Source: Chloroflexota bacterium (GTDB lineage Bacteria > Chloroflexota > UBA6077 > FW602-bin22 > JACPRP01). Taken from it: 64,000 nt of DNA. Each line of letters opens with the position of its first letter. Within the stretch, counting starts at the first letter, position 1. The notes under the pieces were generated by a model. That model saw only the letters and a program-made list of their open reading frames with translations, made no database searches and was not told the origin of the DNA. Positions 1,506 through 48,679 of the stretch are shown one piece after another. Both the position numbers and the translations under genes were made by a program. Where the stretch lies: positions 27,302 through 91,301 of the forward strand of contig JACPRP010000014.1 in the NCBI GenBank assembly GCA_016189905.1, read 5' to 3'.

Positions 1506-1534
1506 GCGCTTGACGATGCGATGGGAGCCCTGAG

Positions 1535-2221
1535 ATGTATAAATGGGCAATGGTTGTCGATCTCGATCGCTGCACAGGCTGTGCAGCCTGCGTGGTGGCC
1601 TGCCGGGCAGAGAACAATGTGCCCATCGCGGGCGAGGAGGAGGCCGGCAAGGGACGCGCCTCCTTCTGGATGAGGATCGAACGGTATTGGGAAGGCGAGT
1701 ATCCGAACGTGCGGGCACGGTATATGCCGGTTTTCTGCCAGCAGTGCGCCAACGCTCCTTGCGAGCCGGTGTGCCCCGTTTACGCAACCTATCATAGTGC
1801 GGAGGGTCTCAACGTGCAGGTCTACAATCGTTGCGTCGGCACTCGTTATTGCGCGAATAACTGCCCCTATGCTGTACGCTACTTCAACTGGTTCGACCCA
1901 CGTTGGCCGGATCCGCTGCCTGAACAGCTCAATCCCGATGTGACCGTTCGGTTCCGCGTCATGGAGAAATGCACGTTCTGTATTCAGCGGATCAGGCGTG
2001 GAAAAGAGCTCGCCAAAATGGCGGGTAGACGCGTCATCGACGGCGAGATACAGCCAGCCTGCGTGCAGACCTGCGCCCCTGGCGCGCTGGTGTTCGGCGA
2101 TTTGAACGATCCTGCCTCCAGAGTGGCGCGCCTGGCGATGAGCCCCAGGCGTTTCCGCTTGCATGAAGATCTAGGCACCGAGCCGGCCGTGTTCTATCTC
2201 AAGGAGCAATCTTATGGCTAG
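1535..2221 (+). CDS. 4Fe-4S ferredoxin-type subunit (ActB2/PsrB/HybA-like)
   Basis: Several Cys clusters: CTGCAACVVAC, CQQCANAPCEPVCP, CVGTRYCANNCP. Its 3' end overlaps the next gene, which suggests translational coupling. Confidence 0.85.
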   Translation: MYKWAMVVDLDRCTGCAACVVACRAENNVPIAGEEEAGKGRASFWMRIERYWEGEYPNVRARYMPVFCQQCANAPCEPVCPVYATYHSAEGLNVQVYNRCVGTRYCANNCPYAVRYFNWFDPRWPDPLPEQLNPDVTVRFRVMEKCTFCIQRIRRGKELAKMAGRRVIDGEIQPACVQTCAPGALVFGDLNDPASRVARLAMSPRRFRLHEDLGTEPAVFYLKEQSYG

Positions 2222-3602
2222 CGATAGCCCCTTCGGTTCAGCAGCGCGTGTAAACGACGATATTCTGAGGCCGGTGCTGCAAACCACCTGGAGGTTCTAC
2301 GCGGTGGTGGCGCTGCTGGGAAGCGTCGTCCTTTGGGGGGCGTTCGCTGTGTGGTATCTGCTTAGCACGGGTATCGGCGTTTTCGGCCTGAATCGTCCCG
2401 TCTACTGGGCCTTGATGATCATCAACTTTGTGTTCTTCGTGGGCCTCAGTCACTCTGGCACGCTCATATCGGCGATTCTGCGGGTTACTCACGCCGAATG
2501 GCGGCGGCCGATAACACGCGGTGCCGAGGCGATGACCGTGTTCACCATTATGGTCGCGGCCGCTTTTCCCCTCATTCATCTAGGACGGCCCTGGGTTTTC
2601 TATTACTTGATCCCTTACCCCGATCTGCGGGGGCTCTGGCCCAATTTTCGCTCCCCATTGATTTGGGATTTCATTGCGATCTCTACTTATCTGACCGGCA
2701 GCATCATTTATCTGTATCTTCCGATGATCCCCGACCTGGCCGTGATACGGGATCGATCCCACGGCTGGAGGCGCTATCTCTACATAGCCCTTTCCCTTGG
2801 GTGGACGGGATCCGAGCGCGAGTGGAGCAGGCTCTCTCGCGTTCTCGGCATCATGGCGGTAGTCATCATCCCGGTGGCGGTTTCTGTCCATAGCATTGTT
2901 TCCTGGGACTTTGCAATGACCATCGTTCCGGTCTGGCACAGTACTATCTTCGCGCCATATTTTGTCGTCGGTGCGATCTATTCGGGCATCGCACTGGTCA
3001 TCACCATCATGGTTTTGATCCGCTGGGTGTTCAACCTCCAGTCTTATCTGCAGCCGAGACAGTTCGACAATCTCGGCAAGCTGCTCTTCGTGATGTCGGT
3101 TATCTGGTTCTATTTTTGGTTTGCCGATGCCTTGACCACGTGGTACGGGCGCGAACCGTCGGAGTTCGCGGTGCTGCGCTACACGATCCTGGGCCCCTTC
3201 GCTCCTCTGTTTTGGACGATGATCGTCTGTAACCTCGTGATTCCTTTTTGGACGATGATGTTCAAGCAGTTGCGAAGGAATGTGCTGGTGATGCTTGTCG
3301 TGTCGCTGCTGGTGAATGTGGGCATGTATAGCGAGCGCATTCTCATCATCGTGCCCGCTCTATCTCGGGGGCGGCTTCCTTCCGCCTGGGGAAGCTATCA
3401 GCCAACGTGGGTCGAGATTTCGATAACGGCCGCTGCCTTCGCCGGCTTTAGCCTTCTGTACGTCCTTTTCACGAAGTTCTTTCCGGTCGTGTCTATGTGG
3501 GAGGTGAAAGAGGGGATGGGTGAGCGCGCGGAGGCCGGGGTCAAAGAGCCGGGGACGCCTCCTAGGAAGACCGTGGAAGGCGCCGAGGGAGCCTATGGAT
3601 AA
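2214..3602 (+). CDS. NrfD/PsrC-family polytopic membrane subunit (ActC-like quinol-interacting subunit)
   Basis: 462 aa with many hydrophobic helices. It sits where NrfD sits after the FeS subunit in Psr/ACIII-type operons. Confidence 0.8.
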   Translation: MASDSPFGSAARVNDDILRPVLQTTWRFYAVVALLGSVVLWGAFAVWYLLSTGIGVFGLNRPVYWALMIINFVFFVGLSHSGTLISAILRVTHAEWRRPITRGAEAMTVFTIMVAAAFPLIHLGRPWVFYYLIPYPDLRGLWPNFRSPLIWDFIAISTYLTGSIIYLYLPMIPDLAVIRDRSHGWRRYLYIALSLGWTGSEREWSRLSRVLGIMAVVIIPVAVSVHSIVSWDFAMTIVPVWHSTIFAPYFVVGAIYSGIALVITIMVLIRWVFNLQSYLQPRQFDNLGKLLFVMSVIWFYFWFADALTTWYGREPSEFAVLRYTILGPFAPLFWTMIVCNLVIPFWTMMFKQLRRNVLVMLVVSLLVNVGMYSERILIIVPALSRGRLPSAWGSYQPTWVEISITAAAFAGFSLLYVLFTKFFPVVSMWEVKEGMGERAEAGVKEPGTPPRKTVEGAEGAYG

Positions 3603-4152
3603 GCCTGTAGATAAGCACGAGGCCCGTCAAGACACCTCGCGCACGGTTCTCATCGGACTGTACGACGATGTGCACGCAGCCGGGCGGGCCGTTGATGGCC
3701 TTGAGAAACATGGAATCGCCCGAGATAAGATCTCCGTGAACTCGTCCGTTCCGCTTCCGGTAGGCACGTTCCGTGCCTATACCAGACCGAGCCGATTGCC
3801 CTACTTCTCGGCGCTTGGCGCCTTCGCCGGGCTGATCGCGGGCTTCAGTTTGGCGGCTGGCACGGCAATGCTCTACCCGATTGCGACCGGCGGCAAGCCT
3901 ATCGTCTCTCTGCCAACGGTTGGCGTCATCACCTACGAGTTCACGATGCTCGGGATCATCCTTTTCACCCTCGTGGGCGTGTTATACGAAATGGGACTGC
4001 CAAGAGTGAAGAAACCACCATATGATCCTCGCGTCAGCGACGGATGCGTCGGCGTGTTGGTGACATGCGAGACGGAGCAGATATCTTTCGAAATCGAGGG
4101 AATCCTTCGGGAATATGGCGCTGCTACGATCACCAGATTTGCTGGAGGATAG
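3595..4152 (+). CDS. ActD-like (DUF3341-type) membrane protein
   Basis: The in-frame ATG at 3595 overlaps the upstream stop (ATGGATAA). Soluble N-terminal region followed by two hydrophobic helices. Position after the NrfD subunit matches ACIII. The track ORF start at 3520 was rejected because it overlaps the upstream gene. Confidence 0.55.
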
Positions 4153-4156
4153 AAGC

Positions 4157-4648
4157 GTGATCCTCTTAAAGAAAATGTTCCGCGCTCATTTTGTCACGTT
4201 AGCCCTCGCTCTCTCGTTGCTCGTCGTCTTGCTTTCCTGCTCGAATATGCGCGCTCAGCCTTCGTTTCGTCCACAACAGGGGCCCAGGCCCTCTACGTCG
4301 GAAGGCATAGTGGCCACAAATGATCCCACCGGCCCGGTCCGCCCGGTAACGGTTCAGCAAGCGGCAATCGGGGCGGCCTCCGGCGATGCCACCATGGCGG
4401 GCGAGGACGTGTACAAGACATACTGCGCGATGTGCCACGGCGTTGATGGCCGAGGCACCGGCCCTGTTGGACAAGCCTTCAATCCGCCGCCGGCGGATCT
4501 GACGGCCGCCGTTTTGGATCAACGTTCGGATGTCCTCCTTTTCACCTTCGTTTCCTCCGGATTCGGCCGAATGCCTCCGTTCCAAAGCGACCTGACGGAG
4601 GAGCAACGATGGGCCGTGATCGGTTACATCAGAACCCTCAGAAAGTAG
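4157..4648 (+). CDS. Monoheme c-type cytochrome with signal/lipoprotein-like N-terminus (ActE-like)
   Basis: CAMCH haem-binding motif with a distal Met region (GFGRMPPF). GTG at 4157 lies 7 nt after GGAGGA. N-terminal hydrophobic segment …LLVVLLSCS. Confidence 0.75.
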
Positions 4649-15376: not shown

Positions 15377-16582
15377 CTACTTCTTGTACGGGCCCAACTG
15401 CTGCACCGCGTATTTGACAAAAGTGTCGTCGACAATCTTACCGGTCGGGATGAGCTCTTGGTACTCCAGCAGCCCAACGTCCTTGAAAAACTGCTGCTGT
15501 TCCTGGATAAAGTCCTCCTGAATCTTCCCATCAGGATCGAACACGGGCAGCACACTGATCTTGAGCACCTCCGGCTTCTGCCCTGTCGCCTTGCTGACAA
15601 CGTCAATTATATCCGGCTTCAACATACCTTTGTCCTGCAGGTCTCGCATCGCCTTGAGGACAGCCACCATGAACCTCTTGGCGGCATCGGGTCGCTCCTG
15701 AATAAACTTGGGACTGTACTGAATCGTAAAGGCCATCTTGCCGGGAAGCGTCTCGTCCACGAGAATCTTGGCTATTCCTGATGCCACGGCTTGGGGTGCA
15801 TGGGGCTGGGTGGAAATGGCCGCGTCGATGGCCCTGTTTTGCAGCGCGACCAACTGGTCGGGAAAGTCCATAGTGACGATGTTCACATCCCCCAGGCTCA
15901 TTCCTGATTGCTTCAACACGTTGTGAAGCCGGTACTCACTGATGCCAGAGCGAGTGTTCATTGCGACAGTCCTACCCTTGAGGTCTTTCACCGACTGCAC
16001 CTCGCCCTTATCCATCAGTTCTTTGCGCACCAGAAGTGGTCCTGTGCTTCCTCCACCCATAGGCGGCTCCAGGGAGAGAGGACCAACTATACGCACCTGA
16101 GCACCCCGATTTATCGCGTTGAAAAAGCCCGCGCCCATAGCTCCACTTGCGATATCCAGTTGCCCTGTAGCCAGAAATGCTGCTACGGCGGCGGCGCCAG
16201 CAACGCTCTCGAAATTGGCGTCAAGCCCCTGCTCTTTGAAATAGCCCTTGGCCTCTGCTACGCGGAATGGCGCGCTGATCGTCGACTTGACGTCCGCGAG
16301 CTTCACTGAGACCAGTGATTGCGGCGATGCTTTGACCGCTGGTTCCGTAGTCTCAGCCGCTTTTGTTGGCGCCGGGGCCGGCGGCTTTGTGGCCTCTGCC
16401 GGCCTCGTCCAGGTCGGCGTCGGGGCGGGCGGTGCAGACTGCGCGCAGCCGAAAACCGATGCCAACGACAAAACTGCGACTAACAACGGGAACATACACC
16501 TGATCGACCAATCACTACTTCTCACGGCGACAACCTCCTCGCTTTTCCTCCAGCGATGACGGGCAAACACATTGACCGTCAT
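15377..16582 (-). CDS. ABC-type solute-binding lipoprotein, NMT1/THI5/SsuA-like fold (subfamily 2 in this window)
   Basis: Signal peptide with lipobox (LASVFGCAQ) and a PT/A-rich linker. Core resembles nitrate/sulfonate/bicarbonate-type SBPs. Paralogous to 21935-23335 and 39116-40273. Confidence 0.8.
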   Translation of the reverse strand: MTVNVFARHRWRKSEEVVAVRSSDWSIRCMFPLLVAVLSLASVFGCAQSAPPAPTPTWTRPAEATKPPAPAPTKAAETTEPAVKASPQSLVSVKLADVKSTISAPFRVAEAKGYFKEQGLDANFESVAGAAAVAAFLATGQLDIASGAMGAGFFNAINRGAQVRIVGPLSLEPPMGGGSTGPLLVRKELMDKGEVQSVKDLKGRTVAMNTRSGISEYRLHNVLKQSGMSLGDVNIVTMDFPDQLVALQNRAIDAAISTQPHAPQAVASGIAKILVDETLPGKMAFTIQYSPKFIQERPDAAKRFMVAVLKAMRDLQDKGMLKPDIIDVVSKATGQKPEVLKISVLPVFDPDGKIQEDFIQEQQQFFKDVGLLEYQELIPTGKIVDDTFVKYAVQQLGPYKK

Positions 16583-16601: not shown

Positions 16602-17771
16602 CTAGTCCCCGTACAGCTTCCTAATGAAACCGCTCTCGTCCAGTTCCTTCATCAGGCTATTATCGATGAAGCTCTCTGGTTTGACCTCCCTTGCTTTCGG
16701 ATTGTTCTTTGCCGCTTCGTCAAGGAGGGTCTGCACAGAGGCAACATTGACGTACGGGATTCTCGGCGCGAGCTTGTCCACATAAAAGTCGAACGTTTCG
16801 CCCAACACTTCCCTGTCCTCTGTCTTGGTGTACTGGCCGATGATCTTCATCGCGGCATCTTTGTCCTTCTTGGCCACGGCGATGCCTTCGACGTACGCTT
16901 TCAGGAAGTTCATCACCGTCTCTCGATTGGCAGATAGATACCGCCTGCTCACAGCTATACAGGTCTGAACGTATGGAATCTGGAGGTCGGCGACGTTCAC
17001 AAGCTCACGCATCCCGAGCTTCTTGAGCGTAAGAGAGTTTGGCGGTCCGGTAATCGTCGCCTGAACTGCCCCAGCCTTCATCGCGCCCATCGTCTCTGGG
17101 GTGCCGCCCAGTTGGACGATAGCTACATCTTTGTCAGGCTCAAGCCCAAATCTCTTGAGCGTCAGCCGCGCTGCGATATCAGTGCTGGCGCCGAACCGAC
17201 CGACACCAACCGTTTTCCCCTTGAGATCTTCGATTTGCTGTATGTTCGGCTGGCTAAAAAGAGAGAAGCCCAGGACATTGTTGGTCGCCGCGATAATGAC
17301 CAGGTCGCCGCCCCCGAGGCTGGAGGCGACCACCGCCTCACCCCCTGTGTTTGCCAGACCGAACTCTCCGGAGGCCATCGCCTGAGCCATTGTGGTGCTC
17401 GATACGATGTAGGGGATGTCGACATCGAGGCCATGTTTCTCGAAGATTGCTTTTTCCTTGGCTACCCAGAGTGGTGTGTATGAGCCGGCAACAGCAACGT
17501 AGGGGACCGTTAGACGAACAAGCCTACCGTCTGTTTTCGTCGCCTCTTTAGCCGCGAGGGTGGGCTTCGCCTCTGGCTTGACATCCTTGGCCTGTGTCGT
17601 GGCCGCCGTGGGCGTAGCTGCCGCCTTGGTCGGTGCTGCCGCCTTTGTTGGTGCAGGAGCTGAAGTCGAAGTTGGCGCAGGTGCAGGTGCACCAGCGCAC
17701 GCAACGGCAAAGGACAAGACGACAACAGATGCCACAAGAAGACCACATCGCAGTTCTCGATGCAAATTCAC
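16602..17771 (-). CDS. ABC-type solute-binding lipoprotein, NMT1/SsuA-like (subfamily 1)
   Basis: Lipobox (SFAVACAG) and an Ala/Pro/Thr-rich linker. Clear paralog of 24111-25337; the C-termini are nearly identical (…IDNS.(M/V)KELDESGFI(R/K)KLY..). Confidence 0.8.
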   Translation of the reverse strand: MNLHRELRCGLLVASVVVLSFAVACAGAPAPAPTSTSAPAPTKAAAPTKAAATPTAATTQAKDVKPEAKPTLAAKEATKTDGRLVRLTVPYVAVAGSYTPLWVAKEKAIFEKHGLDVDIPYIVSSTTMAQAMASGEFGLANTGGEAVVASSLGGGDLVIIAATNNVLGFSLFSQPNIQQIEDLKGKTVGVGRFGASTDIAARLTLKRFGLEPDKDVAIVQLGGTPETMGAMKAGAVQATITGPPNSLTLKKLGMRELVNVADLQIPYVQTCIAVSRRYLSANRETVMNFLKAYVEGIAVAKKDKDAAMKIIGQYTKTEDREVLGETFDFYVDKLAPRIPYVNVASVQTLLDEAAKNNPKAREVKPESFIDNSLMKELDESGFIRKLYGD

Positions 17772-17871
17772 CTTTCACCTCCTGGAAACGATCGATCCAT
17801 TCATCTTTCGACTGGTCCCGCTGCCGGCTTCAAACAGTCGCACGGGTGAGCCCCGAAGACATGTCAATCTT

Positions 17872-17997
17872 ATACCAATTGCCCCTCCACAGGCCCTATA
17901 CTCTTCGGGGGGGGAGCGGTGCCTGAAGTCCTTCGGCGGAAGGACTTCAGCCTGCGTGAGGCGGGGAAATATAGGACTCGTGCATGACCAACTGGAA
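17872..17997. repeat. Palindromic MITE-like element, copy 1
   Basis: About 125 bp, alignable along its full length to 21784-21906. Ends are ATACCAAtTG…GGCCCTATA and their inverted counterpart. Central 12-bp-stem hairpin CTGAAGTCCTTC-GGCG-GAAGGACTTCAG. Confidence 0.7.
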
Positions 17998-18013
17998 TAA
18001 CTAGGACTTCTTC

Positions 18014-18150
18014 GTGAATCTCACGCAACATTGCGGATTCCCAACGGAGGGGGATAGAAAACGCCGATCTGGTGCTGCCTTTCCTTTGCGACAAGGCAAG
18101 CGCTGCGAAGCGCAACGACCTATCTTACTGCGAGGAGCGTATGTGATCCA
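18014..18150 (-). promoter_or_regulatory. Conserved 5' leader element (copy A) of the SBP operon; candidate cis-regulatory RNA
   Basis: Aligns with 25436-25565. Invariant blocks include TGCGGATTCCCAA and GCAAGCGCT (+ strand notation). It lies between a strong promoter and the SBP start codon. Confidence 0.45.
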
Positions 18151-18155
18151 ACGGC

Positions 18156-18184
18156 AATATAGCACTGAGCTAACTGCTTGTCAA
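18156..18184 (-). promoter_or_regulatory. Sigma70-type promoter: TTGACA - 17 nt - TATATT (minus strand)
   Basis: Read directly from the reverse complement of 18156-18184. The same architecture occurs at 25572-25600. Confidence 0.6.
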
Positions 18185-18353
18185 CACGCAACAGTTCGGG
18201 GGATTCGAAGCAAATCATGGGGTTAATTTTCAACCCCACCAGCCGGCGATAGGGTGGACAGATTGTTAGGTTAAGAAAAGAGTGGGTAGCGGCCCTTTCC
18301 TTGCCGTACTGATCGTTAGAACCAGCCAGTACGAATCGAAAGGAGAACCCACC

Positions 18354-18995
18354 TTGACAGCAAGCTCAAGCACCCACTCAAACCCTTCCCCTGCAAGTTA
18401 CGAGCCAGCCTTGGCCCATCACGATGGGTTGGTCCACCTCGTCATCCGCCACCAATATAGAGGCTGCCTACCCTACGCTGAGTTGCTTCAGGCCGGTCGC
18501 AATGGCCTTTGGCACGCCCTCCAGCACTTCGACCCCAACCGTAGTAACGCATTCTCCACTTACGCTTGGCCCAGCATCGCTCACCAGGTCTGGCACGATG
18601 TAGCCCAGGCCAACTCTCCACCACAAGAAGTCCTCACTCCCAACCCGCCCCTACCCCCTCCGGATCTCGATGACCTCACCCAGCGCAGCCAAGTTTATGA
18701 TTGCCTGCGGCGCCTCGTCGATAAGCTCCCGGCCCAATTGTACGAGGTCATAGTTCTCTGCTACGGTCTCTATGACCATCCGCCGCACTCCCTACGGCAA
18801 CTGGGGCGTAAACTCGGCATCTCCCACGAGATGACTCGCCAACGCCTGCTCGCTGCTCTCGTCCATCTACGCCACCCTGCCAACTCCTTACCTTTACGCC
18901 AACTCCTAAACCGCAACACGATCACCGATTACGAGTACGCCGACGAATTGGCCCAGTCCTTCCTGCACCGACGAGGAGGCCGAAATGGTCGCTGA
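18354..18995 (+). CDS. Sigma-70-family protein (regions 2 and 4 only) encoded inside the IS
   Basis: Region 2: LLQAGRNGLWHALQHFDPNRSNAFSTYAWPSIAHQVW. Region 4 HTH: LPAQLYEVIVLCYGLYDHPPHSLRQLGRKLGISHEMTRQRLLAALVHLR. TTG at 18354 lies 8 nt after AAAGGAG. The stop overlaps the transposase ATG. Confidence 0.7.
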   Translation: MTASSSTHSNPSPASYEPALAHHDGLVHLVIRHQYRGCLPYAELLQAGRNGLWHALQHFDPNRSNAFSTYAWPSIAHQVWHDVAQANSPPQEVLTPNPPLPPPDLDDLTQRSQVYDCLRRLVDKLPAQLYEVIVLCYGLYDHPPHSLRQLGRKLGISHEMTRQRLLAALVHLRHPANSLPLRQLLNRNTITDYEYADELAQSFLHRRGGRNGR

Positions 18996-20591
18996 ACTCA
19001 CCGCTAGCCAGCAACGCTCTATGGACCCTGCTATTGTCGCTTCGCTCTCTTTCCCGGCCCTCTTGGACAAACTTCCCCTATCCTTATCTGTCCCTGCCGA
19101 TACTCCCCCTTCCCCCAAACCCCACTACCGCTCCCAATACACCGATCTGGGGTACGAAGGCCTCCTTGATCCCGCTGCCTGGGCCAGCTTGTCCCTGTTT
19201 GATCTCGCCCTGCGGCTCATCGATTTCAGTTCCCTCGAAGCGGTACTGGCTCAGATGGTCTATACAACCTCCGCCAGAGGCCACGTGCCTTTCCACCCGG
19301 TATATCAATGTTTCTGCTGCACTCATGGTACACTCTCAACAAATGGCGTCGTACCCAGGCGCTGTGCAATCTCGCTGCTGCCCGCTACGCTGACTATCGG
19401 GAGCGTTTCGGCTTCATAAAGGGGGTCTATCCCACTGAAGGCGGCCTGCGCGACTTCGAGACCAGGCTCGGCTCCACAGACGGCAACAATCTGATCGCCC
19501 AAACGGTCGAACTGGCTCGCTGCACGAGAATCATTTCCGAGCAGGCTATCCAGGACGGCATCCTTAGCACCGACGGGATGATCCACGACGCGGCCTCTAG
19601 AATGCGCTGCAGTTCGGTAGATGATGCTTGCTACCAGCCCGCTCCGAGAAAGTGCAGGGCCAAAGAAGAGAAGGGCCGCAAGGGCTGTGATTGCATGGAG
19701 ATGGTCTGTGCCGAAGTTTGCAAACATGCTACCCCGCGTGATCCCAAGGCTCGCTTCATCGTCTACGAAGGGCACAACCAAAGTGACAGCCCTAATGCGC
19801 CGTCCGACCATTCAGGGAAGAACAAATTCCAGCAGGGTGAGCCTCGCTACGGCTACCGCACTCCAGTTGTGCGGTTGATAGACCGGGTTCGGCGGGACAG
19901 CTTCGTGTTGGCGCACACTCTGCTTGGCGCCAATGCCCCGGAAGACAAGGCGGTCACGAAGTTGATGGAGGAAGGGGTAGCTCGATTCAACTGGGTACGT
20001 TGGCAGTTCGCGGTGGCGGATGCCGGCGAAGGCAGAGAACCTTTCCTAAGCACCGCCTATGCATTAGGATTGCGCCGCGTGGTTGGGTTGCGAAGAGTGC
20101 CCGGGGATGCCGACGTCCAGCAATGGGCCATTCGTGGCTATGATGACAAGGGTATCCCCGTCTGTCTCCACGGATGCAGGTTGCATCCTAACGGCTGGGA
20201 TAGAGAGCGGCGGCGCTACAAATGGTGTTGTCGACGCACTTGTGAGCGTGAGACAGAGCGTCCGGCACCGGATTGCCCGCACCGCTTTGACGGAGACAAA
20301 CACGGACTGGTTAAAGACGTAGGCCAGAGCTTCCCCGACGGCAGCACTCGGTTAGTCCGAGATGTTCCCTACGGTTCGCCCTTCGCCAAGAAGCTATACG
20401 CTCGTGGGCGTAACGCAGCGGAGGAGCGTAACTCCGAATTCGAGGATTTGGGATTGAAGCGAATGCCGGTGTACGGTTGGGAACGGGTACAGGCGATGGC
20501 GACGGTAGTGGATGTGTGGGTGAACCTCAAGACGATTGTATGCCTGATTCGGGAAGCGACCTTAGCGGCGAACGGGCTATCGCCGCCATAA
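18985..20591 (+). pseudogene. DDE transposase with a DUF772-type N-terminus, split by a frameshift near 19296-19310
   Basis: Frame 1 (18985-) gives …ARGHVPFHPV. Frame 0 (19308-) continues MFLLHSWYTLNKWRRTQALCNL…YRERFGF, so the DUF772 motif is split across two frames. The C-terminus (…NSEFEDLGLKRMPVYGWERVQAMATVVDVWVNLKTIV) is typical of IS4/IS5/IS1182 transposases. No slippery heptamer was seen. Confidence 0.65.
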
Positions 20592-21783: not shown

Positions 21784-21906
21784 ATTACCAATAGCCCCTG
21801 GATAGGCCCTATATTCTCCGGGGGCGGGGCCTGAAGTCCTTCGGCGGAAGGACTTCAGCCTGCGTGGGGCGGGGAATTATAGGGCTCGTCTATGACCAAT
21901 TGGAAT
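21784..21906. repeat. Palindromic MITE-like element, copy 2
   Basis: Full-length similarity to 17872-17997, including an identical central hairpin CCTGAAGTCCTTCGGCGGAAGGACTTCAG. Confidence 0.7.
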
Positions 21907-21934: not shown

Positions 21935-23335
21935 CTACCTCGGCGCCTGATATTTCCCAATCACCTGGTTGGCAGAATCGAGCAGAGATGGATCGAAGAG
22001 TTGTTTCGTGCTCACGGCCTTCTCAAGGCCGCCGTATTCGACCAGGTAGTTCTGATAATTCTCGAGGAAGCGGACGTTGACGTAGCCATTTGGATCAGCC
22101 TGCAGCACTCCCAATCGTGCTATCAGAGACTTGTCCTTTGCCGTGGTATACCTGGAAATGATGTCGATCACTTCGTCCTTGCCCTTGCCGAAATACATAG
22201 CGTCGTGGTAAGCACGAAATCCTTTCAAGTAACCAACCACAAACCGCTTAGCCACCTCCGGCTTTTCTGTCACGAATTTCGGAGATGCCATTATGATGCT
22301 TGTTACCAGGCCGGGATAAAGCTCGTCGGTTCCGGCAAACCAGGCGACCAGCCCATTCTCTACAGCCTGCGTCGCAAACGGCTCCGCCGGAAGGCCCGCG
22401 TCTATGGCCTTGTTGGCAAAGGCGATCATCTGGTCCGGCATCGAAAGCAGCTTAACGTCATCGGCCACGAATTTGCGGGCCTCAGCCTTGGTGAACCCGC
22501 CCTTTTCTATCAAGGTGCGATACAATCCAAAAGCAGGGGGCAGCAGCCCTCCGGCGGCGTTGTCCGCGAGAATCAATCCTTTCAGGTCAGCCCACTGGCG
22601 CACTCGGCCGCTATCCACGAGGTCCTTTCTTACCATTAAGCCTCCAGCCGCCTTGCCGCCGGGCGGTGGTGGCACGTTGTATGTCTGCCCGCCACTTGAC
22701 ACTATCCTGATGTCTACGCCCCGCGCGATTGCATTGAATAATCCCGCGCTCGGTGCACCCCTGCCGATATCCAACTGGCCCGTGCCCAGGGCCGGTATCA
22801 TGTCAGCGCCGCTCTTGAACGAAACGAGCTCGACTTCGAGCCCGAGTTCCTTGAAGAAGCCTTTATCGATCCCTACGAACAGGCCGGCTCCCGATAGTGT
22901 GCTCAGTTCTCCAACCTTGACGCTGACTGGTGGTGCCAATGGCACTAGCGAAGCCTGGGGAGTAGTCGCGGGCTTGGCCGCCGGCGAAGCAGCAGGCTTA
23001 GTCGCCTCGCCCGCGGGCTTCTCCGGCGCTTTTGTGGCAGCAGGCGCAGGAGCCTTGGTTGGTTCTGATGCCTTGGTCGGCGCGGCCGGTGCTTTTGTCG
23101 GCGTCGGCGTGGCTGCTGGCGTGCACGCGGACACTACAAGAGAGATCGATACGAGAGCCACCAATGTCAATCCAAGAAAGCCTTTCACCTTGCGCCTCCT
23201 TTGCTCTTGGGACGTGAGATTCCCCTGAAGTGCGGTTATCATAGTCCCTTGTGCCCCCACTTCTATATCTAGGGCAATAACAACGCCAAAGACAGGGGCA
23301 ACATTCGCTCCCATTTTCGACTGCCGTTGCTTCAA
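21935..23335 (-). CDS. ABC-type solute-binding lipoprotein, NMT1/SsuA-like (subfamily 2)
   Basis: Lipobox (LVVSACTP) and a long PT/A-rich linker. Paralog of 15377-16582 and 39116-40273. The start is uncertain: TTG at 23335 or ATG at 23242. Confidence 0.8.
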   Translation of the reverse strand: MKQRQSKMGANVAPVFGVVIALDIEVGAQGTMITALQGNLTSQEQRRRKVKGFLGLTLVALVSISLVVSACTPAATPTPTKAPAAPTKASEPTKAPAPAATKAPEKPAGEATKPAASPAAKPATTPQASLVPLAPPVSVKVGELSTLSGAGLFVGIDKGFFKELGLEVELVSFKSGADMIPALGTGQLDIGRGAPSAGLFNAIARGVDIRIVSSGGQTYNVPPPPGGKAAGGLMVRKDLVDSGRVRQWADLKGLILADNAAGGLLPPAFGLYRTLIEKGGFTKAEARKFVADDVKLLSMPDQMIAFANKAIDAGLPAEPFATQAVENGLVAWFAGTDELYPGLVTSIIMASPKFVTEKPEVAKRFVVGYLKGFRAYHDAMYFGKGKDEVIDIISRYTTAKDKSLIARLGVLQADPNGYVNVRFLENYQNYLVEYGGLEKAVSTKQLFDPSLLDSANQVIGKYQAPR

Positions 23336-23361: not shown

Positions 23362-24114
23362 CTATGCCAGCGTACGCATCAGAGCGCCGTAGCCTGGGAT
23401 GTCATCCCGAATGTTCATCAGCTTGAGCGCATGCCAGGTGGTAGATTGGCTGGAGGAAATGACGGTACATCCAAGCTCTCTCTCCAGAAGCTCAATATAA
23501 TCGATAGTCGGCCATCGGGGGCAATGAACAAAGACCGTGTCCGCCTTTGTGTCCGCTTCGAAGTATAGCCTCTTGGCTAGCCGGTAGGCGGCGTGGTCTT
23601 GAAGGTGAGCTATATCGGCGTTCCGTTTGACCCCCAGGCCTCCCAGGTTCACCACCTCAAAACCGTATCCTTCAAGAAAGCTCTTCATGTTTTGACCGAG
23701 CCAGTCTTCGAAAGGCGTGGCAAATATCAGCTTCCTGGCCTCCATAGTCCGAAGCGCGTCAATCACCGCCATAATTGTGGACGACACCCGAGCTTTCACC
23801 TTTTGCTGGATCCTGGCGCAGGTCTCGGCCTCACTTCCCACGCCTTGAGTAGTGAACAGAGGGGCGCCGCCGATCATTATCGCGTCGACACCGCTCTCGT
23901 CCAAATCCGTAGCGACCTCCTCGATTGTGGCAGTCTGCCGTTCGATATTTTCCCGGTCCAGTTGGCGAATCGTGCCGGGGCTATGGCGAATAAGCACCCC
24001 CTTTGGGGCCATCTGATAGAATTCGTAAACAAGTTCGGCCCCCGCCGCCGGACCAACATAACCAAGAATGCCTCGCCAACCGTACATCTTCATTACCTCC
24101 GCCAAACCACTCAA
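23362..24114 (-). CDS. Asp/Glu/hydantoin-racemase-superfamily enzyme (maleate cis-trans isomerase / arylmalonate decarboxylase-like)
   Basis: 250 aa, the typical size for this family. Two-lobed pattern with candidate catalytic Cys residues (…ETCARI…, …VFVHCPRWPT…). Embedded between two SBP genes; its 5' end overlaps the upstream gene by 4 nt. Confidence 0.6.
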   Translation of the reverse strand: MSGLAEVMKMYGWRGILGYVGPAAGAELVYEFYQMAPKGVLIRHSPGTIRQLDRENIERQTATIEEVATDLDESGVDAIMIGGAPLFTTQGVGSEAETCARIQQKVKARVSSTIMAVIDALRTMEARKLIFATPFEDWLGQNMKSFLEGYGFEVVNLGGLGVKRNADIAHLQDHAAYRLAKRLYFEADTKADTVFVHCPRWPTIDYIELLERELGCTVISSSQSTTWHALKLMNIRDDIPGYGALMRTLA

Positions 24115-25337
24115 TATTCGTAAAGCTTCTTAATGAACCCGCTTTCGTCCAGTTCCTTCACCACGCTGTTGTCGATGTAGGTTTCTGGCTTGACATCCTT
24201 CGCCTTCGGGTTGGACGAGGCCGCCTCATCCAGGACGGTGCCTATGGCCTCGACGGACGGGTAAGGCGCCTTGGGGATGAGCTTGGTCACGTAGAAATCA
24301 TAACCCTCTTCCAGCGCTTCCTTGTCCTCGGTGCCGCTATACTTGCTGATCACCTTTATTGCGAAATCTTTGTCCTTCTTGCCAGCCGCGATGCCTTCCA
24401 CGATGGCCTTCATAAAGCTTCTCACCGTGTCAAGGTTGCTAGACATATACTGCTTGCTCACAACTGCCGAGGCCATCGGGTAGGCCACCCCCATGTCGGC
24501 GAGGCTGATCAGCTCGATCATCCCCGCTTTCTTTGCTACCAGGGTGTTTGGCGGTCCGAAGATTCCGGCGTGTACGCCACCCGTTTGAATGGCGCCGAGC
24601 GTCTCCGGCGTGCCGCCCGTCTGTACGATGGCAACGTCTTTGTCCGGCTCCAGCCCGTACTTCTTGAGCGCCAAGCGAGCGGCGAAATCGGTGGTCGCAC
24701 CGAACCTGCTGATACCCAGCTTCTTGCCCTTGAGGTCTTCGACGCGCTTTATTTCAGGCCGCGCGTACACAAAGAGCCCGAGCACATCGACCATTCCGGC
24801 AATCAACACTAGGTCAGCTCCGCTGAGATTCACGTTCACGAGGGCGCTGCCGCCCATCAACGCCAAACGCACATCTCCGGACATCAAGGCCGCCGTTATC
24901 GTAGTTGACGAGGCGACAAACGGTACCTCGACGTCGAGGCCGTACTTCTCGAAAAGCCCCTTTTCTTTGGTCAGCCAGGGTGCGGCAAACATTGCCGCCG
25001 TGGAGGCATAAGGCACCTGGAGCTTGATAGGCGCCTTCACCGCTTCGGCCGCAGGTTTGGTCGCTGTGGCCGCGGCCTTAGCCTCTTTCGGCGCTGGCTT
25101 TGCTTCCGGTTTGGCTTCGTTGGCCGGCGCAGCCTTTGCCGCCTGAGTTGGCGTAGGCGTTGGGGATGCTGGCTGGCTACAGCCGACTACCAGTGCAATC
25201 AGGACGATGCCAGTGACGAGAATACATAACTTGCCCTTCGACCGTTTGGAAAGCTTAAACACGACGATCCTCCTTCGCGTGAGCGGCCTCTGTTCGACCG
25301 TCTCAGTCTTCAACGGTGAGCTTAAATGGTCCGCCAA
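24111..25337 (-). CDS. ABC-type solute-binding lipoprotein, NMT1/SsuA-like (subfamily 1)
   Basis: Lipobox (LVVGCSQ) and an Ala/Pro/Lys-rich linker. Paralog of 16602-17771. The true start may be internal. Confidence 0.8.
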   Translation of the reverse strand: MADHLSSPLKTETVEQRPLTRRRIVVFKLSKRSKGKLCILVTGIVLIALVVGCSQPASPTPTPTQAAKAAPANEAKPEAKPAPKEAKAAATATKPAAEAVKAPIKLQVPYASTAAMFAAPWLTKEKGLFEKYGLDVEVPFVASSTTITAALMSGDVRLALMGGSALVNVNLSGADLVLIAGMVDVLGLFVYARPEIKRVEDLKGKKLGISRFGATTDFAARLALKKYGLEPDKDVAIVQTGGTPETLGAIQTGGVHAGIFGPPNTLVAKKAGMIELISLADMGVAYPMASAVVSKQYMSSNLDTVRSFMKAIVEGIAAGKKDKDFAIKVISKYSGTEDKEALEEGYDFYVTKLIPKAPYPSVEAIGTVLDEAASSNPKAKDVKPETYIDNSVVKELDESGFIKKLYEY

Positions 25338-25435
25338 GAATGATAGAGTGAGTAGTGCTGTTGGCGATGACAGGGTCGCTGCACGCCTAGCACCATGTTT
25401 CTCTAGTAGAGGACAATGAGGGGTCCTTTATGAAT

Positions 25436-25565
25436 TCTACGCCACAGTGCGGATTCCCAAACGCTGGGGGCACAAGATAGCACGACGTCGTGTTGTCTTC
25501 CCGTACGATGAAGCAAGCGCTACGATGCGGAGCGAACGACAGATTGCAGAGAAAGAATGTAGCTC
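25436..25565 (-). promoter_or_regulatory. Conserved 5' leader element (copy B); candidate cis-regulatory RNA
   Basis: Alignable to 18014-18150 and lies directly downstream of the promoter at 25572-25600. Confidence 0.45.
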
Positions 25566-25571
25566 AAGGTG

Positions 25572-25600
25572 AATTTAGCACCTGGACGGGCGCTTGTCAA
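25572..25600 (-). promoter_or_regulatory. Sigma70-type promoter: TTGACA - 17 nt - TAAATT (minus strand)
   Basis: Read directly from the reverse complement. Positional homolog of the promoter at 18156-18184. Confidence 0.6.
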
Positions 25601-25947
25601 CATGTACTGTGATCCTGGTGATCCTGTACTGTGATCCACAATTTCGGGTAAACGAAAAGCCCCGCCAAATCGACAGGGCTCTTGATGGTGTTCCACTCGC
25701 CGTTGATTCTGTGCTGCATCTGATTGCAAGTGAGCACCACTATCCAAGTTATTGGGAATACCGGTGCCTTGATGCAAAGAGCCGTGCCTTTCGATAGGGG
25801 TTGGTGGGTGTGAGGCGGATCTTGAATCCTTGCCATTCCATGTTCGGTGTTCCTGTCATGATACAGCATGTCAAGCTTTATCCTTGCCTAAGTTGTAAAT
25901 TCGTGTTCCTATTCGTACACACTTGTGATATAGCGCCGGGCAAGGAT

Positions 25948-26166
25948 GTGATTCACTTGTGCCGAGAGCAAGAGAAGTGGCTTTCTGTAGCGGAGGCGGC
26001 GGAGTACCTTGGCGTGACACCGCGAGCGATCCGGAAGTATATCCAGCAAGGCAAGCTGCGTGCCTTCAAATCACCTGTGGGCGGCCGCACCCTATTTCGT
26101 CCAGATGACCTGGAGGCCTTCAGGCAACCGCGCCCGTACGACCGGCGTCAGGAAGAGGCCAGTTAA
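25948..26166 (+). CDS. Excisionase/MerR-type helix-turn-helix DNA-binding protein
   Basis: WLSVAEAAEYLGVTPRAIRKYIQQGKLRAFKSPVGGRTLFRPDDLEAF is the classic excisionase-family HTH. Start uncertain (GTG 25948 or TTG 25957). Confidence 0.6.
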   Translation: MIHLCREQEKWLSVAEAAEYLGVTPRAIRKYIQQGKLRAFKSPVGGRTLFRPDDLEAFRQPRPYDRRQEEAS

Positions 26167-27217: not shown

Positions 27218-27991
27218 TCACTCCTTTCCCTTCCTCCTCTGTAAGGTCCGTCGGAAGCGATATGATTCGGTGCCAGTTTCGATGATGTGCGCCCGATCCG
27301 TGATGCGATCCAAGAGGGCTTTGCACAGCCGGGCATTCGGGATCACCTGGGTCCATTCCGAGAATGGCAGATTGGTCGTCAGGATTATGGCCGCCTTTTC
27401 GGACCGGTCAGCGATCACCTGAAAGAGTAACTCCGCCCCTACATCCGCGAGGGGTACATAGCCAACCTCGTCGATGGCGATGAGCTCGTACCGCTCCCAG
27501 CGGGCCAACACACGGCGCAACTGTGACTGTGCCTTGGCCTCAACCAACTCGTTGACCAAACCCGCCGCCGTGGTAAAGCGTACTCGCCGTTTCTGGCGGC
27601 AGGCCGCTACGCACAGCCCTGTCAACAGATGCGTCTTACCAGTGCCACACTCCCCGATGAATACCACTGGCTCGGCTCGTTCGATGTATCCTCCCTCGGC
27701 TAGTTCCCGTATCCTGGTTGCTGAGATCACCGACGCCTGGTGGAAATCAAACTCCTCTAGCGTCTTGATCTTCGGCAGATGCGCCTCCTGGATTCGCCGC
27801 ATAATCGTTTTCTGCTCCCGCTCGTCTAGCTCAGCCGTAAGCAACGCATCGAGATAATCAAGGTATCCCTGGTGCTCGCGCTCGGCCTGTTCCGCCAGCC
27901 GAGCGCACCCGCCACCAACCGTCGGCAGATGAAGCAGCTTGCAGTGTTGTTTGATGGCGTTTTCTTGCAGTGAAACTCGCCCCTCGCTCAT
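27218..27991 (-). CDS. istB: IS21-family helper ATPase IstB
   Basis: Walker [11 protein letters not shown], Walker [10 protein letters not shown], typical length of 257 aa. Overlaps the istA stop by 4 nt. Confidence 0.9.
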
Positions 27992-29565
27992 CTTGCCTTC
28001 CCCCCGACCAGGAGCTGATCGTAATCACTAACCAGCGGTAACGGACGCTCATAGACCGCTAAGTCGCCAACGGCTATGGGTGGGGCAGAGGCGCGTTCGA
28101 GCTGGTGGGCCGTTAGCAGATAGCGCACCGTGGAGCTGTCCCCACAGCCAAGGGCCAGCGCTCCTTCTATGGCCACACGTAGCTTATCCTGACCATTGGT
28201 ACGACCCAACTGCAGCAACTCGATCAACTCCTTTGTTCCCTTCTGACGACCGTACCTGTCGATGAGACCTTGCCAGAACCTATCGTAGCTGGCTGGCCAA
28301 CGCCCAAGTTGGCGCCACTGGGCCAGGGGTTTGCTGCCGATTAGTGCCCCTGGTTTATGCTCCAAGACGTCGAGGTAGTGTTCTAACTCCAACCTTTCCT
28401 GATGGCGGCCATAGCAGCGCTCGTGCGTCGCTACCAGGCTTCCTTCGTGCCAGACTTCCACCGCCGTCGGCGTGATCTTCGCCTGCACGGTTGTGCCAGC
28501 CGCGACAGGGGTCGAGTAGGAGTTCGTCTTAACCTTGACGCAGCCAAGACTATTGACCGTGGGGAAACTCACCTCCACGATCTCGAAGTCCTCGCTGGCG
28601 GGCGGCAACAGATACGCCCGCTCGAGCAGCATCGCGTTACCCACTGTCTGATCGTGGCCGGCTATCACGCGCCGCTCGTCGTCGTGACAGGCTTTCAGGA
28701 GTTGGGCATTGAGATCGGCCAGGTCGTTTGCTTTGGGAACTGGTACCCAGTGGTTGCGACGGAATCTACCCACCTCGTTTTCCACTCCGCCTTTCTCGTG
28801 TGGCTCGCCCGGGTTACAGAACTCGGACTGAAACTTCCAGTGAGAGCGAAAGGCGATGAAACGGGCAGTCTCTTCTCGTTGGAAGCCTCGTAGGATACGC
28901 TTTACCGCCTCCGGCAGGTTATCGTAGCGGAGCCGATAGAAGACACCCCCGAAATGATGAAAGGCTAACTGGTGAGCTTCCAGGAAGGCCTGCTGCGTAG
29001 GCCGATGATAGGCGCGATGGAAAGCACCACCACTGGCCATGCTACGGAAGACGAAAACGTACAACTTGACCCGTTCGTCGCCGAGATCGGCCTCGGCTTC
29101 GTACCAGTCAATTTGTGCTTCCTGGCCCCAAGCGTGGCTCTGGGGCACGAATGTCTCACGCGCCAAAAGACCCAGGGCGCGCTTTCGCTCCCGGACATAC
29201 TGGCGCACTGTCGATTCCGCTACGTGAACGTCTTTGCACTCCTCGCCTATCCGAACGTATATCCGGTGTGCCGTGTGCCTTTGCTTGCGCGGCGCCTTCC
29301 GATCGCCCTCAAGGATAGCGTCGATGAAGTCCACTGCTGGCCCCAACACGGGACGAGGACGCACTACCGCTTGTTTTTCCTTCGGTACTGCGCTGTCAAT
29401 CGCCTCCCGCACCATACGCCGATGAATGCCAAACTTGCGAGAAACGCCTTGAATTGTCCCCACCCCAAACTCGTATTCTCGTCTGATCGCTTCGAATAGC
29501 TCCACGTTCGCTCTTCTCCTTCGCATCGGTCCCCCATTGTGCTTTGCTGACACAAAGGGTACCAC
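27988..29565 (-). CDS. istA: IS21-family transposase IstA
   Basis: 525 aa with an N-terminal HTH and a DDE core (…[12 protein letters not shown]…, …RYDNLPEAV…, …[12 protein letters not shown]…). Paired with istB. Confidence 0.9.
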
Positions 29566-30601: not shown

Positions 30602-30928
30602 TTAGGACTTCTCGGTATGCTTCCTAGCGCGACCGCCCTTCTTGCCAATCCTCGAGTAGTACTCTTGACCGTGTCGCTCTTTGACGGTCTCACCGCCTCG
30701 GCGACCGATCTCGGCGTAGAACTCGCGACCGTGCTTGGCCTTCAGGGCTTCCCCACCCTTCTTGCCAATCTCGGCGTAGAACTCGCGTCCCCGCTGCTCG
30801 GCCACGGTTTCGCCACCCTTCTTCCCGATCTTCGAGTAGAACTCGGGGCCGTACCGCTCTTTGACAGTCTCGCCGCCTTTTCTACCGGCCTCGCGGACCG
30901 TCATCTCCTTCTTCTCATCAGGAGCCAT
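30602..30928 (-). CDS. KGG-repeat general-stress protein (YciG/GsiB-like)
   Basis: At least four tandem 20-aa units: (K/R)(K/R)GGE(T/A)V…(H/Y)G.E(F/Y)Y..IG. They are mirrored by a 60-nt periodicity in the DNA. Confidence 0.8.
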   Translation of the reverse strand: MAPDEKKEMTVREAGRKGGETVKERYGPEFYSKIGKKGGETVAEQRGREFYAEIGKKGGEALKAKHGREFYAEIGRRGGETVKERHGQEYYSRIGKKGGRARKHTEKS

Positions 30929-31153
30929 CTTCCTCCACCCCCTTCCCAGTTTGGAATGGGAAGTTAGTTATGATAGATAGGTGCTCGTTTTGCCCCTATC
31001 TTCACCATTCGCATCCGAAACCAGTCTTCCTGCCTGCTCTATCTCTCAGCGCTCTACTTTGTCCACAGGGTCACTGGAAACGGAGCGTCCGCTTCTCTGT
31101 CCTTAGTGTAGCACAAAGCGGTGGTTATGTCAACAAGTCTACTCGCCTTCGTA

Positions 31154-36217: not shown

Positions 36218-36428
36218 CGCGCCGGAAAGAGTGGCAGACCCTCTGCCCGTTTCATGCCAACGCTCTGGACTTTTGCCCACGACCTACTTCTTTTCGTTCG
36301 AAACTTCGGTATTCGAGGTGGCATTAGGCCAGGATCTGATGCACAATCCTGGCAGCTTCACTCAGGTGGAAAGTCAGTGGGGCCAGATCAGCCCCAAAGA
36401 GATCTACGCTAGTGATGGAGGTTACGTA

Positions 36429-37952: not shown

Positions 37953-38888
37953 ATGTACATCGACTGTCATGCTCACCTTATTCCACGAGAGTTTGCGCTT
38001 GGTCCCAGGCCGCAGGCTATGTTTGCCGTCGAGCCTCTGCTAGCCCAGCAGGAAGAGGCCGGGGTGGTGACGGTGTTCTCAAACCCTATGTTTACCTACC
38101 ACCCCGATAAGCTCGACCCCACCGACATCAAGCACCTCAGGATATACAATGACTTCGCGGCGAACCTTGCGGCCAAGTATCCAGGTCGCTTGATCGGCAC
38201 GGCCTCCGCCAACCCTTTCGGTGGCAAGGAGTATGTGCGAGAAACCGAGCGCGCCATTAAGGAATGCGGCCTCAAAGGCGTCATGGTTAACTCGAGCGTT
38301 CACGGCGAGTACCTCGACTCTGACCGAGCCCTTCCCTTCTACGAGCTTGTTTGTGAGTTAGATGTCCCGGTCTTCGTTCATCCTCCCGCTATGCCCCTGG
38401 GAACGGAGAAAATGGAGAAATACCGCCTCATCGAGATGATCGGTCGCCCTATGGACACGACGCTGTCACTGGCTCGGGCGGTTTACGCGGGCATATTCGA
38501 GCGCTTCCCTAACCTCAAAATCGTTGGCTCTCACGTTGGGGGTGGCATAATGATGTTGCCCGGGCGTCTGAACTACGGGTGGGACGCAAGGGAAGACAGG
38601 GACTTCCTGCCACTCGGACAATGGGGTGAGAATATTCTCGTCCAACAACCCAGCGAATACATGAAACAGCTCTACGTCGATACGATGAGCCTTCATCCTC
38701 CCGCCGTGATGTGCGCCATAGCCATGGTGGGTGTCGACCACGTCGTGTACGGCAGCGATGCCCCTCCGCTTGAGATTCCAATGGCAACGTCCAAGAAAGT
38801 TGTGGAAGACCTGCCGCTGAGCCAATCTGACAAGAACAAGATCGCCAGCGGCAACGCCCAGCGTATTCTGAAGCTCGACATCACCTGA
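37953..38888 (+). CDS. Amidohydrolase_2-family metal-dependent hydrolase/decarboxylase (ACMSD/PicC/IDCase-like)
   Basis: MYIDCHAHLIP (HxH), …VFVHP…, …VGSHVGG…, VVYGSDAP (Asp). Length 311 aa. Confidence 0.8.
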   Translation: MYIDCHAHLIPREFALGPRPQAMFAVEPLLAQQEEAGVVTVFSNPMFTYHPDKLDPTDIKHLRIYNDFAANLAAKYPGRLIGTASANPFGGKEYVRETERAIKECGLKGVMVNSSVHGEYLDSDRALPFYELVCELDVPVFVHPPAMPLGTEKMEKYRLIEMIGRPMDTTLSLARAVYAGIFERFPNLKIVGSHVGGGIMMLPGRLNYGWDAREDRDFLPLGQWGENILVQQPSEYMKQLYVDTMSLHPPAVMCAIAMVGVDHVVYGSDAPPLEIPMATSKKVVEDLPLSQSDKNKIASGNAQRILKLDIT

Positions 38889-48559: not shown

Positions 48560-48679
48560 TGACCATTCCTTCCAGTCGAAATCGCGGGCGCGGCCACGCA
48601 CCGCTGCGCCACTTCCGACGTTTCGACGATGAGCGCAGTCTAACAGCCGTTTAACCAACCGTCAAGTGCGAACTTGTAG

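Follow-up and report, generated by a model that had tools for sequence, protein, structure and literature searches.

A stretch of 64,000 nucleotides from a Chloroflexota assembly (contig JACPRP010000014.1, positions 27,302 to 91,301; hereafter, the window) carries on its minus strand two paralogous operons for NMT1/SsuA-like substrate-binding proteins (SBPs), and in both operons the first ~135 transcribed bases make up a real promoter-proximal leader that selection has maintained and that has no match in Rfam. A third full copy of this leader (L125) precedes a paralogous SBP gene in another genome. We favour, at a probability of about 0.5, a structured leader RNA that acts in cis and alternates between a form closed by a long-range helix, P1, and other pairings. 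The two copies in the window, upstream of the genes for SBP A and SBP B, are referred to as copies A and B, and the coordinates of the features are collected in Table 1.

In each of the three copies, the leader stands behind a strong promoter of the sigma-70 type that has an extended -10 element. The sequence-only reading of this DNA had identified a pair of promoters at 18156-18184 and 25572-25600, and both are in place (11/12 and 10/12 consensus matches, respectively), with transcription predicted to start at ~18149 for copy A and ~25565 for copy B. Its description of alignable leaders with about two-thirds of the positions matching and a set of invariant blocks is borne out by a local alignment that runs from two bases 5' of the -35 box to the ATTCA block, in which 126 of 181 positions are identical (70%; score, 57), compared to a score of 19.3 ± 2.2 (maximum, 28) for 300 dinucleotide shuffles. 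Restricted to transcribed positions, the identity is 66%, and leaders A and B share GTCGTT, AGCGCTTGC, and TTGGGAATCCGCA as invariant blocks. No alignment was found between the copies in the DNA upstream of the -35 box, and the untranslated region (UTR) 3' of the ATTCA block was not alignable (score, 14; shuffles, 14.7 ± 2.1). The end of leader B had been placed at 25436, whereas the conserved block ends at 25431. A miniature inverted-repeat transposable element (MITE) lies between leader A and the start codon at ~17873-17998, as previously proposed, and has a second copy in the window that is 86% identical; the non-alignable proximal UTR amounts to 101 nucleotides (nt) after the MITE in copy A and to 168 nt in copy B. 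The distance from the element to the start codon is unconserved (~50, 170, and 245 nt in the three copies), and the ribosome-binding site (RBS) is found 50-245 nt downstream of the element. The start of SBP B, previously placed at 25337 (a TTG), is more likely the GTG at 25262, which is positioned behind GGAGGA.

The indels that separate the copies are not multiples of three, and thus the leader holds no conserved open reading frame (ORF) on either strand. One small ORF that is in frame in both copies (TTG-GGA-ATC-CGC-AAY-GTN-GCG-stop) was considered and rejected, as L125 has TCG in place of the TTG start and reads through the stop, and the variable third positions fit loop positions equally well (p about 0.11).

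The degree of conservation in the leader can be set against that of the adjacent genes. SBP A and SBP B share 51% protein identity and are 66%, 72%, and 42% identical at the first, second, and third codon positions, respectively. Four-fold degenerate sites within identical codons are near saturation, with 38% of the bases identical, compared to 28% expected from composition. These figures bear out the earlier view that protein conservation does not exceed that of the leader. Because the four-fold sites and the flanking non-coding DNA have been randomised while the leader has been kept, the leader is under selection and a recent duplication is not the source of the similarity; the comparison indicates that purifying selection maintains the first ~135 transcribed bases, whose conservation is far above the neutral expectation, and that the A and B copies are the product of an ancient, rather than recent, segmental duplication. 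The recent-duplication alternative that the sequence-only reading had itself named does not fit a leader that is 70% identical between flanks that cannot be aligned. SBP C and SBP D, the second and more divergent binding proteins of operons A and B, are 34-36% identical to each other, and duplication of the entire two-SBP operon is therefore ancient.

The SBP family consists of ~35 paralogues with a mutual identity of 45-65% and is confined to 'Chloroflexi bacterium' metagenome-assembled genomes (MAGs) and the Logan assemblies of three runs. A collection of 5.8 billion proteins contained no close orthologue of SBP A, SBP B, or P0008, the paralogue that follows L125. The upstream DNA was inspected for 11 database paralogues (12 contig look-ups), and P0008, from a Chloroflexi MAG, is the only one of the 11 with the full leader, supplying the further homologue that the sequence-only reading had called for. 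The P0008 protein is 59% identical to SBP A and 56% identical to SBP B. The promoter of L125 (TTGACA-17-TATAAT at 111-139) matches the consensus at 12/12 positions and includes the TG of the extended -10, and is followed, in order, by CAUAC, CUCGCA, the box around the second hairpin (hp2), GGAAAGACAGCA, CCC..GGG, and GGGGAUCCGCAACGUAGCGCAGGAUUCAC, with the RBS only ~40 nt later. L125 and copy A are 69% identical over 87 nt (z = 6.6), the match of L125 to a profile of the three copies has an nhmmer E of 7.8e-27, and 61 columns are invariant in the alignment of A, B, and L125. A second paralogue, P0127, has a short leader (L146) with the same kind of promoter and only the hp2 box in common (z = 4.8), so that the element totals three full copies and one partial copy, all from one poorly sampled Chloroflexi lineage.

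Two further observations concern L146. Within L146:655-800, GAAC[AAUGUU]GUUC and GUGAG-UAGUC-CUCAC hairpins occur together with the hp2 box in an order unlike that of the window copies, and in the minimum free energy (MFE) fold the Shine-Dalgarno sequence is paired by GUUCUCCU. In the window, CTCATCGTCGA at 48623-48633, an exact 11-mer of the L146 hp2 box, is located at ~+4 of a promoter (48637-48665, minus strand) that stands upstream of a major facilitator superfamily (MFS) transporter gene and is among the four strong TTGAC-N-TGnTAnnnT promoters that the window has in all. This 11-mer was rejected as a leader copy, as the covariance model of the hp2 box gives it no score, and the match may be due to chance.

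Broader searches returned no additional copies. A profile hidden Markov model of the three leaders found none in the window and all 150 loci collected. A scan of genome contigs with the loose pattern TTGGGAATCCGCANTG had at least 120 matches, attributable to chance, and a BLAST search of the leaders against the 120 listed loci was empty. Three of the scan matches (L025, L040, and L062) fall in one sponge-associated Candidatus Poriferihabitaceae MAG (CBDBQH01) and belong to an unrelated repeat, more than 200 nt long and present in at least three copies, that contains TTGGGAATCCGCATTG by chance. A scan of Joint Genome Institute (JGI) metagenomes with GGRATCCGCANNGTNGCGNNNNATTCA had 14 matches (L132-L145) and no leader homologue, all 14 being accC genes matched at the coding sequence of the N-terminal G-I-R-T-V-A-V-Y-S motif of biotin carboxylase; the leader block GGAATCCGCAnnGTnGCG....ATTCA coincides with codons for this motif. 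No leader homologue was detected in viral contigs (two-block pattern) or plasmids (blastn).

This restricted distribution bears on whether the element has any regulatory function, as opposed to being a duplication remnant or the result of gene conversion between the copies or, as a variant of the same idea, a separate small RNA gene. In favour of such a reading, one genome holds two of the three copies, 7.4 kb apart, with MITEs and an IS21-family element nearby, most paralogues are without the element, and no homologue was detected in the metagenome pattern scan, viral contigs, or plasmids. Yet the synonymous and flanking non-coding sites have been randomised while the leader keeps 70% identity and its invariant blocks, and L125, from another assembly, has the same blocks before a protein that is only 57-59% identical; a separate small RNA is further at odds with the lack of any terminator that would delimit one. 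An element with no regulatory function is, on this evidence, quite improbable.

The leader was also compared to known RNA families. Rfam 15 had no match at gathering score in the whole window, and cmscan at E <= 10 left the element itself unmatched in A, B, and L125, in agreement with the earlier failure to match it to known riboswitches; the only matches in the window at E <= 10 lie off the element and on the other strand. The absence of a match excludes the TPP, cobalamin, SAM, glycine, guanidine, ZTP, fluoride, and xanthine (NMT1 motif) riboswitches and the Chloroflexi motifs of Rfam. The leader appears to belong to no known RNA family and is most likely an undescribed regulatory leader.

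Comparative signals of modest size point consistently to an RNA structure. RNAalifold predicts the long-range helix P1, in which +16..+20 pair with +126..+130, and between A and B the helix has three consecutive compensatory changes in addition to a conserved G-U and C-G pair; a compensatory run of this length arose in 5/500 column shuffles. The three-sequence consensus energy is -15.2, compared to -8.5 ± 2.9 for shuffles (12/500). The named structure, composed of P1, the hairpins hp1 and hp2, and the CCC/GGG helix, is 83% paired, compared to 27-49% for slid controls, and five pairs are changed on both sides (16/500 shuffles). The consensus-fold signal is specific to the sense strand (z = -2.46, 4/300, compared to z = -0.66, 66/300, for the antisense strand), and P1 as well as hp2 of copy B include G-U pairs, which function on the mRNA strand only. 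With three sequences the covariation is thin (p about 0.01-0.03 in shuffles), and a covariance model of the hp1-hp2 region, in which the hp2 helix alone is modelled, finds just its four training sequences (39.4 bits for L146). Overall, the evidence for an RNA structure on the mRNA strand is suggestive, not proven.

The same blocks could instead act on double-stranded DNA, as operators or as an extended promoter and initially transcribed region. Conservation begins exactly at the -35 box, imperfect palindromes are present among the blocks (e.g., GCGCTTCGCAGCGC and CGCAATGTTGCG), a TCCGCA..GT.GCG motif occurs twice in copy B, ~75 bp apart, and regulator-type genes are located upstream of both copies (a sigma-70-family gene at 18282-18995 and an HTH_17 gene at 25801-26166). 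However, conservation extends to +135, past the usual operator positions, with none upstream of -35, the palindrome arms are asymmetric with a 3-4 nt bulge that is always on the 3' side, and the adjacent regulator genes differ between copies A and B. The restriction of the consensus-structure signal to the sense strand, with some helices that need G-U pairs, also speaks for RNA, leaving control at the DNA level a rather slim prospect.

If the leader is a structured RNA, the 3' strand of P1 would have more than one partner. It is also the 3' side of a local hairpin, hp3 (folding energies, -3.7 to -9 kcal/mol), and in each of the three full leaders the MFE fold places it at the base of a downstream hairpin: GUGAG...CUCAC in copy A, with CUCAC at 17842-17846 and the MITE nested in the loop, GUAGA...UCUAC in copy B, and GCGCAGG...UUUGCGU in L125. 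The downstream hairpins have energies of -5.9 to -15.6 kcal/mol (z between -1.4 and -2.3), and their downstream partners sit in unalignable sequence, where chance alone would supply several complements of five bases in each UTR. The alternative pairing would have the layout of a switch, a reading that we make by inference only.

As proposed here, the promoter-proximal ~135 nt of these NMT1/SsuA-like SBP operon mRNAs would act in cis as a regulatory leader RNA. A pyrimidine-rich segment at ~+16 to +20 (CUCGC in A, UCUGC in B, and CUCGC or AUCCGCG in L125) would provide the 5' strand of P1 and a purine-rich segment at ~+126 to +130 (GUGAG, GUAGA, and GCGCAGG, respectively) the 3' strand, such that P1 closes the element and encloses hp1, hp2 (loop RUCGYN), a variable hairpin, and CCC...GGG, with the hexaloop hairpin CGC[ANNGUN]GCG adjoining P1. 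Re-pairing of the P1 3' strand, either locally in hp3 or downstream, would then create two mutually exclusive conformations. The choice between these may fall to a factor acting in trans, which would be a small molecule or a protein that binds RNA at hexaloops with G at the fourth position (G4). Because the distance to the start codon varies to the point of tolerating a MITE and there is no intrinsic terminator, the output would be expected on transcription elongation (e.g., Rho-dependent) or mRNA stability and not through a fixed RBS-occlusion platform.

A number of results weigh against a switching leader RNA. Just three full copies are known, two of them paralogous and from a single genome, which makes the covariation statistics weak, and the remaining paralogues that were examined follow another operon gene or have unrelated leaders. 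The P1 columns in L125 pair with one mismatch, and the alternative P1 of L125, AUCCGCG with GCGCAGGAU, has one bulge. Single-sequence folding energies are no better than those of shuffles (z = +0.14 and +2.0), and with A and B alone both the consensus energy (126/500 shuffles) and the total of compensatory pairs (357/500 shuffles) are unremarkable. As hp3 and its outer stem are invariant, they carry no covariation information for or against the fold. No terminator-like site or attenuator was found in any of the leaders, nor was a conserved RBS occlusion, and the best partners of the Shine-Dalgarno sequence occupy non-homologous positions (the CCUCC..UGGGAA block in A, the ACACGACG hairpin in B, and GAUCCGCG in L125) with z-scores of -2.5 to -3.3, which is what the best of many windows gives.

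For the structured leader RNA, two sub-cases differ in the nature of the trans factor. The first is a protein-dependent leader of the ANTAR type, in which a regulator binds hairpins with G4 loops and controls read-through or translation. The ANTAR systems NasR, NasS-NasT, and AmiC-AmiR control or use binding-protein-like genes. Targets of ANTAR proteins consist of two stem-loops of at least 3 bp each with hexaloops that have A at the first position (A1) and G4, separated by a short linker (PMC3369931, PMC8164766) of 5-12 nt in eut and 2-25 nt in the actinobacterial definition (PMC3369931, PMC8164766, PMC8934654), and G4 is the base contacted by the ANTAR protein (PMC8934654). Like the known targets (EutV/eutP, NasR/nasF, AmiR/amiE, and the actinobacterial ANTAR RNAs), the element is in the 5' leader of an operon and has hairpins of at least 3 bp, paired a few nucleotides apart; its six-base loops, where present, have G as the fourth base and often A as the first, and are conserved while the stems can change. 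The 3-bp stem of hp3 carries the hexaloops AAUGUU, ACUGUG, and AACGUA, with A1 and G4 in 3/3 copies, and the loop of GAAC[AAUGUU]GUUC in L146 is identical to that of hp3 in copy A on a different stem. The hp2 loops (GUCGCA, (C)AUCGUA(C), GUCGUC, and AUCGUC) have an invariant G4 and one compensatory stem change. Linkers between hp1 and hp2 are 2-4 nt in A, B, L125, and L146, and the linker from CCC..GGG to hp3 is 4 nt in A, B, and L125.

In other respects the element departs from ANTAR targets. A defining property of such targets is that the second hairpin overlaps the 5' half of an intrinsic terminator, or the RBS or start codon, but none of the leader hairpins overlaps a terminator or the RBS, and the conserved sequence is far longer than two mini-hairpins, at ~135 nt compared to ~40, with a long-range closing helix. 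Several loops are without A1 (present in 2/4 hp2 loops), the hp2 loop of copy B is 8-9 nt, and the loops of the partner hairpins are 4, 6, or 7 nt. Statistics do not support homology between the L146 hairpin and hp3, and an ANTAR domain was absent from the ~58 window ORFs scanned with Pfam. The resemblance is accordingly treated as a sub-hypothesis on mechanism, not a family assignment, and an ANTAR-type leader is considered unlikely, with a modest share of the odds.

The second sub-case is a metabolite riboswitch, in which the P1-closed, multi-hairpin structure would be an aptamer for the SBP substrate or a breakdown product of it, perhaps an N-heteroaromatic or other organic acid. The compensatory P1 surrounds highly conserved unpaired blocks (UUGGGAAUCCGCA and GGAAAGRCARCA), as in aptamer cores, the P1 3' strand has an alternative pairing in the MFE folds of 3/3 copies, and the controlled genes encode uptake components within an island that also holds UbiD, xanthine-dehydrogenase-type, amidohydrolase, and isochorismatase genes. 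There is also a precedent in the xanthine (NMT1 motif) riboswitch, a cis element that likewise stands before NMT1/THI5-like or tauA-type genes (PMC7373994) and shares the context of purine or heteroaromatic oxidation genes. The NMT1 motif RNA is a two-stem junction of ~50 nt (P1-P2a-P2b, with conserved bulge nucleotides) that is restricted to Proteobacteria and overlaps the RBS (PMC7373994), whereas the leader is ~135 nt, occurs in Chloroflexi, and is far from the RBS, and the covariance model of this motif had no match at E <= 10 in A, B, or L125. The TPP riboswitch, in front of thiY/NMT1-type genes, has the same type of controlled gene. In L125 only, CCUGAUCCG has what we take to be a resemblance to part of the TPP pyrimidine-sensor helix, with no TPP match at E <= 10.

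Set against an aptamer is the lack of conservation of the hp1 region, the 5' third of the element, which cannot be aligned in L125, where an unrelated hairpin and ~15 extra nt are found instead. Further, L146 has some of the modules only, in a different order, which a single aptamer would not tolerate, the folding energies are unremarkable, and an expression platform was not found in the leaders. A true riboswitch is thus a doubtful proposition, and the ANTAR-like and riboswitch sub-cases are roughly equally likely. Of the earlier proposal that this is a ligand- or protein-responsive leader, the constraint, the absence of a match in Rfam, and the existence of a further homologue are supported, as is, to some extent, a strand-specific structure with compensatory changes; a ligand-binding riboswitch, an expression platform, and an effector go beyond this support. 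It is conceivable, at a low probability, that the structured leader represents the aptamer of a new and rare riboswitch class, or a protein-RNA switch, of one uncultured Chloroflexi lineage that operates without a classical terminator or RBS platform; that such a switch would sense the substrate of the greatly expanded family of orphan NMT1-like lipoprotein SBPs is a similarly tentative suggestion.

Table 1. Positions of the leader copies, their predicted helices, and the associated operon genes in the window.
Feature	Position	Strand	Evidence or remark
Promoter, copy A (TTGACA-17-TATATT, TG extended -10)	18156-18184	-	11/12 consensus matches
Promoter, copy B (TTGACA-17-TAAATT, TG extended -10)	25572-25600	-	10/12 consensus matches
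Conserved leader, copy A (first ~135 nt of transcript, 3' end ATTCAC)	18014-18149	-	nhmmer E = 4.9e-39
Conserved leader, copy B	25431-25565	-	nhmmer E = 4.9e-38
Predicted P1 5' strand, copy A (CUCGC)	18130-18134	-	consensus fold
Predicted P1 3' strand, copy A (GUGAG)	18020-18024	-	consensus fold
Predicted P1 5' strand, copy B (UCUGC)	25546-25550	-	consensus fold
Predicted P1 3' strand, copy B (GUAGA)	25436-25440	-	consensus fold
Putative hp1, copy A (GCGC[UUCGCA]GCGC)	18100-18113	-	sequence reading, pair counts
Putative hp2, copy A (CCUU[GUCGCA]AAGG)	18083-18096	-	covariance model R1, 51.6 bits
Conserved purine block AAAGGCAGCA, directly after hp2, copy A	18073-18082	-	
Putative hp3, copy A (hexaloop hairpin CGC[AAUGUU]GCG, inside invariant block UUGGGAAUCCGCA..GU.GCG)	18024-18035	-	
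Putative hexaloop hairpin, copy B (CGC[ACUGUG]GCG)	25440-25451	-	
MITE directly 3' of leader A	17873-17998	-	second copy at 21786-21906, 86% identical
SBP A, NMT1/SsuA-like lipoprotein binding protein, first gene of operon A	16602-17771	-	Pfam NMT1 E = 5e-23
SBP C, second NMT1-like binding protein of operon A	15377-16582	-	
SBP B, paralogue of SBP A, first gene of operon B	24111-25262	-	Pfam NMT1 E = 2.8e-24
Arylmalonate decarboxylase / maleate isomerase family gene, operon B	23362-24114	-	
SBP D, paralogue of SBP C, last gene of operon B	21935-23335	-	

The MITE is ~126 nt with a strong internal hairpin, CTGAAGTCCTTCCGCCGAAGGACTTCAG, and its second copy immediately follows the SBP D gene, which ends operon B. 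Positions 40353-40370 hold 18 nt of the MITE hairpin, after a third C/D-like SBP gene (39023-40273) that itself follows genes for a UbiD decarboxylase (36231-37868) and an amidohydrolase (37953-38888). There is no ABC permease or ATPase gene near the SBP operons, and PDB relatives from which the ligand of the SBPs might be deduced amount to two, both distant and without known function. An apparent N-heteroaromatic catabolic island is spread over window positions 36231-37868, 42449-44320, and 51379-63824, and includes three UbiD-family decarboxylases, two trios of the xanthine-dehydrogenase/carbon monoxide dehydrogenase type (52915-56786 and 57227-60956), an isochorismatase (61518-62234), and an adenine-deaminase-like amidohydrolase.

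Divergent from leader A, 18282-20591 (plus strand) encodes a sigma-70-family protein with regions 2 and 4 only (extracytoplasmic function-like), and, after it, an ORF of 427 aa that matches no Pfam family and is possibly an anti-sigma factor. The DNA just upstream of leader B holds an IS21-family element (istA/istB; 27218-29565) and the HTH_17 (excisionase-like) gene, and a pair of HTH_17 and PIN genes is located at 40862-41883. A fourth strong promoter with an extended -10 (TTGACA-17-TACACT; 31105-31133, minus strand) is followed by a leader of ~175 nt before a gene for a KGG/LEA-type stress protein (30602-30928). At the start of the window (6-4648), genes for alternative complex III (molybdopterin oxidoreductase, 4Fe-4S, NrfD, ActD, and cytochrome c) fit a respiratory chain of the Chloroflexi type.

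With three known copies, the element is a lead, not a discovery. These Chloroflexi maintain dozens of paralogous orphan NMT1-like SBPs beside UbiD, xanthine-dehydrogenase-type, and amidohydrolase genes, and a dedicated leader in a subset of the SBP operons marks genes that would share a response to one signal. A metabolite effector, once identified, would name the substrate class of these SBPs; a protein effector would define a post-initiation regulon in a phylum for which almost nothing is known about RNA-based control.

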